Below, in pieces: positions 27,297 through 29,670 of a stretch of 40,009 bases of DNA. The position numbers and the translations under genes are program-made. Below the pieces are notes generated by a model. The model ran no database searches. It was not told the origin of the DNA and saw only the letters and a list, made by a program, of their open reading frames with translations. Every line of letters starts with the position of its first letter. Position 1 is the first letter of the stretch. The DNA lies in NCBI RefSeq assembly GCF_003334765.1, contig NZ_QOWT01000036.1, one strand, 5' to 3'. The DNA comes from Escherichia coli (lineage in GTDB: Bacteria > Pseudomonadota > Gammaproteobacteria > Enterobacterales > Enterobacteriaceae).

Positions 27297-27442
27297 CTGA
27301 AGACGCTCTCTGAACGTTACAGGGTGATCAGTGAGATAAGTCTGTTAATTATAAAGTAAACACTGTAAAGCAGAGTGTTTTATTTTTCATTCGCGCTGTG
27401 AATAAATAGATGAAAGTTATAGTAGCTGTCTGTAGTTATATA

Positions 27443-28345
27443 TCAAAAACTCTCATTTAGACGGTCAATAAATCGGGAGAACACCAAATTATTTAAAGAA
27501 GATTTATTATAGGAAATGTAAAGCTTTATTGAAGGTAACGGATGTTCTAGTTTTATCTCTTTTAAGTTAAGAAAGTCACGGTAGAAATTATAAAGTTCAT
27601 AGGGGACTATTCCCAGTAAATCTGTAACTGCAATGCTATTAATGATTGTCAGCAAAGAGGAACCACGAAATGAGATTTTGCGATTCATAAATCTCTCGTC
27701 TATTTCCATTTGAATATCATCAACCCCTGCTGATTTAGATATTAATTGGGTGAACTCTTCTGCCATAATTTGTTCATAAGTGCTATTGTCAGTAATTCGT
27801 GGATGCCTATTACTACAAATTAGAGTATTGCGAATCGTATGCAATGGCATGCAAATGACGGAACGGCTGATCACTGGCATTTGGGTGATCACCAGATCGG
27901 CTTTGCGGTGAACCAACAGTTCTTCAGCATTCTCTGCTGACATGAGGATATCATGGCACTCAATCTCGACAGAGGAATCTTGCCGTAGGCAGCGGATCAG
28001 CATACTATTATTAGAGCAAGAAATGAGCTGAGGGCCGTAGATAATAAAGTTTTTCTTTAGTTCGGACTTATTGACTATATTAATTGTTTGTTCAAGGCCT
28101 CTGAGATTTTTCTCAAGATGGTGATGCAGATTTAACCCTGTTGTCGTCGGCGCGATACCTTTTCCTGAGCGAATGAATAAAGGGTCATTAAATTGCGCAC
28201 GTAAGCGTTGTAACGACTGGCTCACGGCTGATGGGGTGATATATAGTGATTCAGCAGCTTTGCTAATGCTTAAATGCTGGTAAATACACTCAAATATGAC
28301 AAGAAGATTTAAGTCGAACTTTTTCAAGTCGTAGAGATTGGCCAT
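27443..28345 (-). CDS. ybdO: LysR-family transcriptional regulator YbdO (300 aa)
   Basis: The N-terminal helix-turn-helix (LSISKAAESLYITPSAVSQSLQRLRAQF) is LysR-type; the coding sequence is markedly AT-rich by eye. Confidence 0.9.
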   Translation of the reverse strand: MANLYDLKKFDLNLLVIFECIYQHLSISKAAESLYITPSAVSQSLQRLRAQFNDPLFIRSGKGIAPTTTGLNLHHHLEKNLRGLEQTINIVNKSELKKNFIIYGPQLISCSNNSMLIRCLRQDSSVEIECHDILMSAENAEELLVHRKADLVITQMPVISRSVICMPLHTIRNTLICSNRHPRITDNSTYEQIMAEEFTQLISKSAGVDDIQMEIDERFMNRKISFRGSSLLTIINSIAVTDLLGIVPYELYNFYRDFLNLKEIKLEHPLPSIKLYISYNKSSLNNLVFSRFIDRLNESF

Positions 28346-28552
28346 ACACTACTCCGGTTATATTTTTCTTCCATGATATATTCACTTAATCAATGTTTTT
28401 TGCGTATATATTTTTATTGATTATGTTTTTTGCTTAACTCAGGATTAAGTTTTTCTAAAATAGCACAGCCACTTAGGGCAGAGCGAGCAATTCATGCTTT
28501 TTTAGGATGGTTGAAAAGCAGGGATATAGTTCAACCATCCATGAATTACCTT

Positions 28553-29299
28553 TTATTTATTCCCCATAATGATATTAAGCGTTTTCTGATCGGGCAACCC
28601 CACGGCCTGTTGTAGCGTATTTTCCTTACTCATGTAATAGATAGCCGGCGTGACATTTGCCCCCAGATCGTCCATCAGTTTCTCATTGTCACTTAACACT
28701 TTCATTTGCTCTGTACTTACGTTTGCAGGCACGTTTAGCTTAAGCTTGCCACCAGAGGCTTCATATTGTTGCCAGGTTTTTGCGGGATCTTTGGAGGCAA
28801 GAATTGCCGCTGCTGTCGCCGGGCTTTCTGGCTTGATAACCCCAACCAACAATGTTCTTAATTGCACTTTGCCAGAATCTACCCACGGGCGCGCCTGCTG
28901 CCAGAACTGTTTACAATATGGGCAGAACGGATCGGCGAAGACGTAGACAATGACCGGCGCATCTTTTTTACCGTCGAGGAGCCAGTGGGATTGTTCCATC
29001 CGTTGCCACATTTCGCGTCCGGCTGGTGCGTAAATTTCTTTTTCGATAAGTGTGTTACTCAGGTTTTCACCTTTCTCGTTGTACATGTAACCAGAGATAG
29101 CGTGCTTACCATCTGGAGTCAGGTAGATGGTGACGCCCATATCCTGATACTTTCCGAGATAACCTTTCATTCCTCCGGGGGCATCGAATGTTTTGATGAT
29201 TGTAATGCCCTGTTTTTCAATCGCTTTTACTGGAGCAGGAAGTTCCTCTGCGAAGGCGATTGCAGGAAGCAGAGCCAGTAAAAGTATCTTTTTTAACAT
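28553..29299 (-). CDS. dsbG: Periplasmic thiol:disulfide interchange protein DsbG (248 aa precursor)
   Basis: Signal peptide [17 protein letters not shown] and thioredoxin-like active site CPYC; the track ORF is over-extended by 20 codons. Confidence 0.92.
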
Positions 29300-29670
29300 T
29301 AATTTGTCCTTTTCAGTCAGTGCAAAAGTCGAGTAAAAGGCATAACCTATCACTGTCATAGGTAAGAGCTTAGATCAGGTGATTGCCCTTTGTTTATGAG
29401 GGTGTTGTAATCCATGTCGTTGTTGCATTTGTAAGGGCAACACCTCAGCCTGCAGGCAGGCACTGAAGATACCAAAGGGTAGTTCAGATTACACGGTCAC
29501 CTGGAAAGGGGGCCATTTTACTTTTTATCGCCGCTGGCGGTGCAAAGTTCACAAAGTTGTCTTACGAAGGTTGTAAGGTAAAACTTATCGATTTGATAAT
29601 GGAAACGCATTAGCCGAATCGGCAAAAATTGGTTACCTTACATCTCATCGAAAACACGGAGGAAGTATAG
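29300..29670. promoter_or_regulatory. Divergent dsbG/ahpC control region (expected OxyR-dependent ahpC promoter)
   Basis: A 371-bp spacer between divergent dsbG and ahpC. It contains acctat-N7-ataggt (29345-29363), i.e. CTAT-N7-ATAG spacing followed by cttag, reminiscent of OxyR tetranucleotide spacing. Exact operator boundaries are not determined. Confidence 0.4.

Follow-up and report, generated by a model that had tools for sequence, protein, structure and literature searches.

The AT-rich ybdO/citR region of Escherichia coli: an ancient H-NS-silenced regulator gene with two divergent allele classes

The ybdO/citR locus

The DNA analysed here is a stretch of 40,009 nucleotides of K-12-like Escherichia coli DNA (RefSeq assembly GCF_003334765.1, contig NZ_QOWT01000036.1; called the window below), which extends from the ent genes as far as the cit genes and of which 5 kb are 100% identical to a K-12-derived chromosome. 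Our subject is the AT-rich stretch at 27297–29300 around ybdO, a gene for a LysR-type transcriptional regulator (LTTR) that RefSeq names citR. We consider it highly probable that this stretch consists of an ancient, H-NS-silenced ybdO/citR with its control regions, that its AT-richness is maintained and that the gene exists in E. coli as two recombining allele lineages. The genes and the divergent block of the locus are as follows.

27443–28345, minus strand: ybdO (citR), open reading frame for a LysR-type transcriptional regulator of 300 amino acids, core of the AT-rich stretch
27047–28483, no strand assigned: hyperdivergent dimorphic block with the first ~50–80 codons of ybdN, the ybdN–ybdO spacer, all of ybdO, its 5′ untranslated region (UTR) and the promoter spacer
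26076–27296, minus strand: ybdN (by annotation), PAPS-reductase-like, in the CitR-repressed operon
25474–26103, minus strand: ybdM (by annotation), ParB/IbrB-like, in the same CitR-repressed operon (ybdNM, 25474–27296)
28553–29299, minus strand: dsbG (NCBIfam DsbG equivalog, 425 bits), GC content 0.461, outside the compositional anomaly

The genes dsbG, ybdO, ybdN and ybdM follow one another in this order, all on the minus strand, with ybdNM directly downstream of ybdO. Open reading frames and annotation thus agree with the gene identities and the order given in an earlier note on this DNA, which had placed a LysR regulator directly upstream of ybdNM; that CitR represses ybdNM has been published (PMC9068703).

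YbdO reaches 467.1 bits with the NCBIfam equivalog model of CitR (NF047710, cutoff 400, residues 1–294), and citR is the RefSeq annotation for both allele classes described below. The protein has the winged helix-turn-helix (HTH) domain of LTTRs (Pfam PF00126, HTH_1, residues 12–70, E = 1.7e-18) as well as their C-terminal domain (Pfam PF03466, LysR_substrate, residues 135–299, E = 3.5e-9) and their typical length of ~300 amino acids. After CitR, the next-best family models are YbeF and then LeuO with 102.6 bits; judged by profile scores, LeuO is one of the closest paralogs that have been characterised. LeuO is a chromosomal LysR regulator likewise held silent by H-NS, and its gene resembles ybdO in being an AT-rich, H-NS-silenced LysR-type gene of the E. 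coli and Salmonella core genome. However, the score of YbdO is well below the LeuO equivalog cutoff of 262 bits and YbdO is therefore not LeuO; nor is CitR known to act as an antagonist of H-NS.

Base composition of the AT-rich stretch

By eye, the earlier note had judged 27297–29300 to be much richer in AT than its surroundings, and the calculated values confirm this. The stretch has a GC content of 0.407 compared with 0.529 for the window, and only 0.3% of all 2004-bp sliding windows are lower in GC; their minimum (0.404) is reached by the one starting at 27334, within the noted stretch. In sliding windows of 200 bp the GC content goes down to 0.275 at 27401–27600. The coding sequence of ybdO has a GC content of 0.385 (0.435, 0.322 and 0.399 at the first, second and third codon positions), while the 32 open reading frames of the window have means of 0.530 ± 0.048 for GC and 0.570 ± 0.075 for GC at third positions (GC3). 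The spacers on both sides of ybdO have a GC content of 0.342 (ybdN–ybdO, 27297–27442) and 0.324 (ybdO–dsbG, 28346–28552). Codon usage was scored as leave-one-out log-odds against the other genes of the window together with the fraction of rare codons, and ybdO had the worst fit among 29 genes (z = −2.64; 7.3% rare codons). The amino acid composition of YbdO is also AT-skewed, with a FYMINK fraction of 0.336 versus 0.217 and a GARP fraction of 0.156 versus 0.283.

The long A/T runs that had been noted are real. Tracts of at least six A/T bases are two- to three-fold enriched in the core (27.9 versus 8.6 per kb in the window), as are TpA steps (85 versus 41.5 per kb), and matches to the H-NS motif with at most two mismatches occur 2.4 versus 1.0 times per kb in a core with a GC content of 0.37. 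An excess of A/T tracts and TpA steps over the background, in DNA rich in AT, is characteristic of H-NS-silenced loci. The atypical composition is at the same time one that is expected of horizontally acquired islands, though in ybdO the offset is constant across hosts differing in GC content.

The extent of the anomaly has to be corrected. While ybdO and both of its spacers belong to it, as the earlier note had it, dsbG, which had been included, does not. The gene is only mildly low in GC (0.461, GC3 0.49, z = −1.9), with a middle part at 0.50–0.53. Across 26 species its mean offset from the GC content of the flanks (−0.046) is about that of ahpC (−0.051), ybdN (−0.048) and ybdM (−0.049), compared with −0.129 for ybdO. 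Because the cross-species offset of dsbG equals that of ahpC, its inclusion in the AT-rich unit is not justified. The anomaly is thus a segment of ~1.3–1.4 kb (~27300–28650) centred on ybdO and its spacers, not one of 2 kb.

Two allele classes of ybdO in E. coli

In about a third of the E. coli genomes the 5-kb region around ybdO is only 90–95% identical to that of the window. The extra divergence is restricted to ~27150–28650, where it amounts to 15–27% per 250 bp versus a background of 2–5%. Among 5423 genomes, the identity values of the 1.5-kb core to K-12 have a bimodal distribution: 3634 genomes have at least 95% identity and 1789 have 79.9–81.6%, with none at 90–95%. A reciprocal search with the alternative allele divided them into 1833 and 3590 genomes. 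The K-12-type class is thus found in ~66% and the alternative class in ~34% of genomes. Matching the primers for rapid amplification of cDNA ends (RACE) published in PMC4720273 to the alleles assigns strain SE15 (phylogroup B2) to the alternative class and strain SE11 (B1) to the K-12 class, to which O157:H7 belongs as well.

Between the classes, ybdO differs at 20% of nucleotides and 11–12% of amino acids; by the method of Nei and Gojobori (NG86), dS has reached saturation, with a dN of 0.065 and a dN/dS of ~0.03. As NG86 estimates are inflated near saturation by two-fold sites (dS ~2, pS up to 0.9), we judged dS unreliable and used the raw divergence at four-fold degenerate sites as the primary measure. 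Between K-12 type and alternative type it is 0.50–0.53 in ybdO, 0.10–0.13 in ybdL, 0.08–0.11 in ybdM, 0.04–0.17 in dsbG and 0.00 in ahpC. For scale, the flanks of E. coli and those of Citrobacter or Salmonella differ at 0.57–0.73 of four-fold sites. Expressed as Jukes–Cantor distances, the classes are ~0.9 apart in ybdO versus ~0.13 in the flanks. Both classes are similarly AT-rich, with a GC content of 0.385 and 0.37 and a GC3 of 0.40 and 0.34–0.35 for the K-12 type and the alternative type, respectively.

Within the K-12 class, K-12 and O157:H7 differ at 1 of 112 four-fold sites in ybdO and at 18 of 278 in ybdL and ybdM together. A constantly higher local rate would predict 39.3 within-class differences in ybdO, whereas only one was observed (P = 6e-20). 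Since within-class divergence is normal, local hypermutation as well as simple relaxed constraint can be rejected as causes of the pattern between classes. The dimorphism points to deep coalescence or to introgression by homologous replacement, and the horizontal component of this locus consists in alleles being exchanged within Escherichia through homologous recombination. The existence of two discrete, old allele lineages is an addition to published knowledge of this gene.

Both lineages are under strong purifying selection at the protein level. None of the 110 residues of the HTH domain and linker (residues 1–110) differs between the classes, compared with 34 of 190 in the effector domain (residues 111–300; Fisher P = 6e-8). 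Most of the 34 substitutions are conservative (S/T, V/I, D/E, M/L, R/K). With an effector-domain pN/pS of only ~0.1, we rate a functional dimorphism as possible but unproven. The N-terminal domain of YbdO is nearly invariant as far as Citrobacter. For the whole protein, identity between genera is 45–62%, compared with 69–98% for the neighbouring proteins, and between K-12 and Escherichia sp. MOD1-EC7003 the amino acid divergence of YbdO is 0.07 versus 0.02–0.03 in the flanks, with four-fold divergence being similar.

Breakpoints, mosaic alleles and related lineages

The left boundary of the dimorphic block lies within the first 50–80 codons of ybdN (~27047–27150), and the right boundary lies in the promoter spacer at ~28483 in three alternative-class genomes. 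Strain VCSW7 (L003) returns to K-12-type sequence between 28426 and 28521 and thus joins an alternative coding region and 5′ UTR to a K-12-type promoter-upstream region. In Escherichia sp. MOD1-EC7003 the reverse combination is found in a 15-bp promoter spacer. The block also has a much less diverged patch at codons 49–98 of ybdO (28050–28200), with a pS of 0.26 versus 0.66–0.90 elsewhere and a nucleotide divergence of 6%. The patch overlaps the strain-specific, H-NS-independent negative elements mapped by Higashi et al. and could be a gene-conversion tract or reflect constraint at the nucleotide level.

The two classes recur in other, divergent Escherichia lineages, one class in each, at a divergence that is roughly that of the flanks. 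The alternative class is common to E. coli and SCPM-O-B-8794 (four-fold divergence 0.35–0.37 in ybdO, 0.27–0.41 in the flanks) and the K-12 class to E. coli and MOD1-EC7003 (0.14 in ybdO, 0.15–0.16 in ybdN and dsbG). A recent introgression of the alternative allele from the SCPM-O-B-8794 lineage was considered and rejected, as the divergence of ybdO equals that of the flanks. E. whittamii and E1V33 have a third YbdO lineage with 74–77% amino acid identity, and the value is 79% for protein clusters that bear the names E. albertii and E. marmotae.

Conservation of ybdO in E. coli and across Enterobacteriaceae

The 5-kb ybdO region was matched in 5423 of 5426 complete E. coli genomes, 5321–5331 of them with at least 80% coverage. 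The gene is therefore near-universal in the species and not strain-variable as a genomic island would be; the exceptions that we examined were disruptions or deletions associated with IS1. The E. coli B lineage has lost ybdO and the 5′ end of ybdN in an IS1-associated deletion, with IS1 in their place, and one BL21(DE3) assembly has dsbG joined to yaiO. Insertions of IS1 inside ybdO are recurrent and independent, occurring in several unrelated strains and in both allele classes, which is consistent with the preference of IS1 for AT-rich targets. From this recurrent loss we conclude that ybdO is dispensable in the laboratory.

Orthologs were collected from one genome per GTDB species, which gave at least 79 ybdO loci. 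In ~75 of them, representing ~75 species and at least 15 enterobacterial genera, ybdO occupies the same slot in the order ahpF-ahpC-(dsbG)-ybdO-(ybdN-ybdM)-ybdL, and in each of them it is lower in GC than the flank. The genera with this synteny include Escherichia, Citrobacter, Salmonella, Enterobacter, Klebsiella, Raoultella, Kluyvera, Leclercia, Lelliottia, Trabulsiella, Pseudocitrobacter, Superficieibacter, Silvania and others. Some genera are without dsbG or without ybdNM and still retain ybdO; ybdNM is absent and ybdO kept in Leclercia, Silvania, Klebsiella indica and Raoultella terrigena. In a neighbour-joining distance tree the YbdO sequences group by genus, congruent with the relationships of the genera, so that neither an absence or other location in related genera nor, as far as a distance tree can tell, an incongruent phylogeny marks ybdO as an island gene. 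With the same slot in at least 15 genera and a tree that groups by genus, an origin from foreign DNA, if there was one, would be older than the radiation of these genera.

In all 58 loci having both reference flanks, ybdO is lower in GC than the flanks, with an offset of −0.129 (standard deviation 0.023). The GC content of ybdO ranges from 0.36 to 0.54 and correlates with that of the flanks (r = 0.82). As it follows host GC at a constant offset, we take the deficit to be maintained and not residual. No integrase, tRNA or transposase stands beside the locus in the annotated regions of intact genomes, for which no dedicated scan for tRNAs or direct repeats was run, and IS1 occurs at the locus as a secondary insertion only.

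Presence in nearly all E. coli genomes, synteny over ~75 species, the genus-congruent tree and a GC content that tracks the host all leave the horizontal acquisition proposed in the earlier note unsupported as a recent event. YbdO is encoded by an ancient, vertically inherited core gene of foreign-looking composition. Outside the family, E. coli ybdO with 98–99% identity turned up on short contigs of two metagenome-assembled genomes labelled Lachnospiraceae and Bacteroides (L009, L010), which are almost certainly cases of binning contamination.

Published and candidate promoter, operator and hairpin elements

The published transcription start site (TSS) of ybdO, 107 bp upstream of the ATG (PMC4720273), converts to position 28452 of the window. 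Relative to this position the following elements can be placed.

28346–28552, minus strand: ybdO–dsbG spacer with the ybdO promoter and the 107-nt 5′ UTR, low in GC as given above and bound by H-NS
28457–28465, minus strand: TGcTATTTT, candidate extended −10 element of the ybdO promoter from conservation and position, 5–6 nt upstream of the TSS
28433–28449, minus strand: dyad CTTAATCCTGAGTTAAG of the T-N11-A form at +4 to +20 of the TSS, with arms invariant across Escherichia alleles
28521–28595, minus strand: published H-NS-dependent upstream element (URE, −250 to −176; PMC4720273), converted coordinates
28182–28319, minus strand: published H-NS-dependent downstream element (DRE, +27 to +164; PMC4720273), converted coordinates, inside the ybdO coding sequence
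27297–27442, minus strand: ybdO–ybdN spacer with the dyad ATTCACAGCGCGAAT at 27389–27403 and a TATAAT within 27344–27355
28505–28540, minus strand: stem-loop directly 3′ of the dsbG stop codon from RNA folding, GGATGGTTGAA-N14-TTCAACCATCC, 11-bp stem

The sequence TGcTATTTT does not vary among the allele lineages of Escherichia, and many genera have a similar element ~120 bp upstream of the ATG; we propose TGcTATTTT as a putative extended −10 element of the ybdO promoter. Conserved dyads of the T-N11-A type, as expected of LTTR binding sites, are present at 28433–28449 and 27389–27403. The first, CTTAATCCTGAGTTAAG, is a candidate auto-operator of CitR. The second has the form ATTCA-N5-TGAAT and is retained together with the TATAAT in both allele classes, and the two may represent the operator and the promoter of ybdNM. 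A scan for consensus promoters and terminators gave fewer matches than shuffled sequences and did not recover the published promoter.

The hairpin at 28505–28540 has a folding energy of −15.2 kcal/mol (z = −2.9) and no U-tract, and the URE overlaps half of it as well as the 3′ end of dsbG. Its inverted repeat, centred ~71 bp upstream of the TSS, was considered as a CitR operator and rejected. The hairpin is found at the same position in every genus that has dsbG and only there, the sequences of its arms bear no relation to one another from genus to genus, and three pairs are compensatory in E1V33. These observations are better explained by an RNA hairpin at the 3′ end of dsbG; the hairpin is probably a 3′-end or terminator structure of the dsbG mRNA rather than an element of ybdO control.

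Discussion

The earlier note was right in ascribing H-NS silencing to this DNA, a finding that is already in the literature. Higashi et al. (2016) found the H-NS signal in chromatin affinity precipitation sequencing (ChAP-seq) across the DNA upstream of ybdO and the ybdO coding region in K-12, SE11 and SE15, derepression of ybdO-lacZ fusions by deletion of hns, and H-NS-independent negative elements that differ between SE15 and SE11 or K-12 (PMC4720273). In E. coli K1, Fan et al. (2022) reported binding of H-NS to the ybdO promoter in electrophoretic mobility shift assays (EMSA) and hns-dependent repression by quantitative reverse transcription PCR (PMC9141747). Rodionova et al. (2022) described a YbdO peak upstream of citR by chromatin immunoprecipitation coupled to exonuclease digestion (ChIP-exo), autoregulation and an increased expression of ybdNM and citCDEF upon deletion of ybdO, hence the name CitR (PMC9068703); further YbdO targets are given in a 2024 study of avian pathogenic E. 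coli (APEC). The AT-rich, H-NS-silenced state of the region and the repression of ybdNM by CitR are therefore already known.

Our results concern the same locus as these accounts and agree with them on H-NS binding, TSS, URE and DRE, strain diversity and autoregulation. They differ in how the diversity is read, which was taken as faster substitution in a transferred, H-NS-bound gene and which we attribute to two old lineages with mapped breakpoints, and they go beyond the published work on ybdO with the synteny and the persistent AT-richness across at least 15 genera. Higashi et al. likened ybdO to bgl and proU for its upstream and intragenic downstream H-NS-dependent elements (PMC4720273). 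The likeness is one of mechanism only, as the genes are unrelated, and a bridging or looping between URE and DRE is hypothetical at ybdO. With the islands subject to xenogeneic silencing, e.g. the Salmonella pathogenicity islands (SPI), ybdO has AT-rich DNA, H-NS occupancy and low expression in common. Unlike SPI-type islands, however, ybdO is not strain-variable, has by annotation neither mobility genes nor a tRNA beside it and is conserved in position across genera.

We propose the following model. Filaments of H-NS nucleate on the AT-rich, promoter-proximal DNA at the upstream and the intragenic downstream elements and keep ybdO nearly silent; CitR, once made, represses ybdNM downstream as well as its own promoter. 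In this model ybdO is an ancient vertical resident of the ahpCF–ybdL interval in Enterobacteriaceae, and its AT-richness is a maintained state ~13 GC points below any host rather than the fading trace of a recent import. A block of ~1.4 kb, from the 5′ end of ybdN to the ybdO promoter, segregates as two old lineages that pass between strains by homologous recombination through the conserved flanks. Our data show the composition, the synteny, the dimorphism, the pattern of selection and the breakpoints, and published work shows binding and repression by H-NS and the targets of CitR; the causes of the maintained AT-richness and of the persistence of two alleles are inferred. Selection for occupancy by H-NS might keep the gene AT-rich, or AT-biased drift might do so as the gene is silenced, and the two lineages might persist as the result of one old replacement that follows the phylogroups or through selection on effector sensing. 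A more far-reaching version of this model is doubtful. It holds that ybdO is a native core gene of the whole family whose AT-richness is actively maintained for H-NS silencing, by selection or by a feedback between silencing and AT drift, and that two alleles older than the coalescence of the species, with a shared DNA-binding domain and differing effector domains and cis-acting spacers, wire the phylogroups to different signals.

Several points weigh against our interpretation. The AT-richness reaches all three codon positions and the amino acids, which would also suit a low-GC donor, and Higashi et al. list ybdO as horizontally transferred (PMC4720273). Together with the atypical codon usage and the binding of H-NS, these points would be explained if the Escherichia lineage had received from a low-GC donor an island of ybdO, and perhaps of dsbG and ybdNM, which H-NS silences as foreign DNA and which has kept an un-ameliorated donor signature. 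We consider such an import very improbable, and as a recent event it is largely refuted. The locus is near-universal in E. coli and shares one chromosomal position across at least 15 genera with a tree by genus, its GC content shifts with the host at a constant offset that we take to be maintained rather than residual, and dsbG, ybdN and ybdM are compositionally like ahpC. An original foreign origin is conceivable, though only at a time before these genera diverged. Furthermore, the ortholog scan across GTDB species did not recover E. fergusonii, and the two classes may reflect either a single ancient replacement or repeated exchange. The low divergence at codons 49–98 shows that the block is itself mosaic, which makes any single age estimate crude. 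Finally, the operators and promoters proposed here are suggested by conservation and position.

Two further explanations concern the divergence between the classes. According to the framing of Higashi et al., silencing by H-NS relaxes constraint on ybdO or raises its substitution rate, and the gene evolves faster in every lineage. The low identity of YbdO between genera, its excess of amino acid changes between K-12 and MOD1-EC7003 and the higher dN reported for H-NS-bound genes (PMC4720273) are in line with this, and the effector domain does evolve faster than average. However, the excess between the classes is synonymous (four-fold divergence 0.52 versus 0.12), with a dN/dS of 0.03, and within the class ybdO is no more diverged than the flanks, if anything less. 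Bimodal identities, sharp breakpoints and a mosaic allele are the signature of recombination between old lineages, and we regard faster evolution in every lineage as quite improbable. Balancing or niche-specific selection on effector sensing, by which two classes of the same DNA specificity but differing ligand response would both be kept, is unlikely in our view, though somewhat less so. It would account for the confinement of all 34 amino acid differences to the effector domain, for the high frequency of both classes, for the different regulatory outputs reported in different pathotypes (capsule activation in K1 (B2) strains versus repression of ybdNM and cit in K-12) and for the H-NS-independent elements that set SE15 apart. 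On the other hand, the substitutions are mostly conservative, the effector-domain pN/pS gives no sign of diversifying selection, and the contrast between N- and C-terminal parts also holds across genera and is thus a matter of ordinary domain constraint. The split into two alleles may also just mirror deep phylogroup structure after one replacement.

The existence of two old, recombining lineages refines and in part contradicts the published interpretation of faster diversification, although for a characterised locus the advance is incremental. It bears on the use of AT-rich, H-NS-bound DNA as a proxy for horizontal transfer, as ybdO is AT-rich in every host and yet ancient. It also bears on ybdO as an exemplar of H-NS-facilitated diversification, given that its diversity stems from two old lineages exchanged by recombination. 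If the more far-reaching version of our model were true, a textbook case of H-NS accelerating the diversification of transferred genes would turn out to be an ancient allelic dimorphism spread by recombination. Comparisons of YbdO phenotypes between K-12 and B2, K1 or APEC strains should consider that the alleles may differ.

Other features of the window

Outside the AT-rich stretch, the product of ybdN has weak, domain-level similarity of the PAPS-reductase fold to DNA-modification and defence proteins (DndC, E = 2e-5; BrxP, E = 1e-4). A PADLOC search of ybdN and ybdM gave these weak domain matches only and assigned no defence system. The only other part of the window that comes near the GC dip of ybdO is a patch at 8501–10000 (GC 0.437) over the gene at 8981–10114, just after the large entF-like open reading frame. 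The spacers cstA–ybdD (~22650–22899) and ahpC–ahpF (~30150–30399) have strain-variable indels, with lengths differing by ~70–115 bp, possibly due to gain or loss of repetitive extragenic palindromic (REP)-type elements. The zinc-dependent alcohol dehydrogenase gene ybdR (32814–34052) is missing in strain AREA_R485, where yldA directly follows uspG, and is thus a presence/absence polymorphism, unlike ybdO. In the dsbG–ahpC spacer, upstream of ahpC, the plus strand at 29433–29526 matches the enterobacterial small RNA STnc70 (Rfam RF02069) with 42.7 bits, compared with a gathering score of 40.

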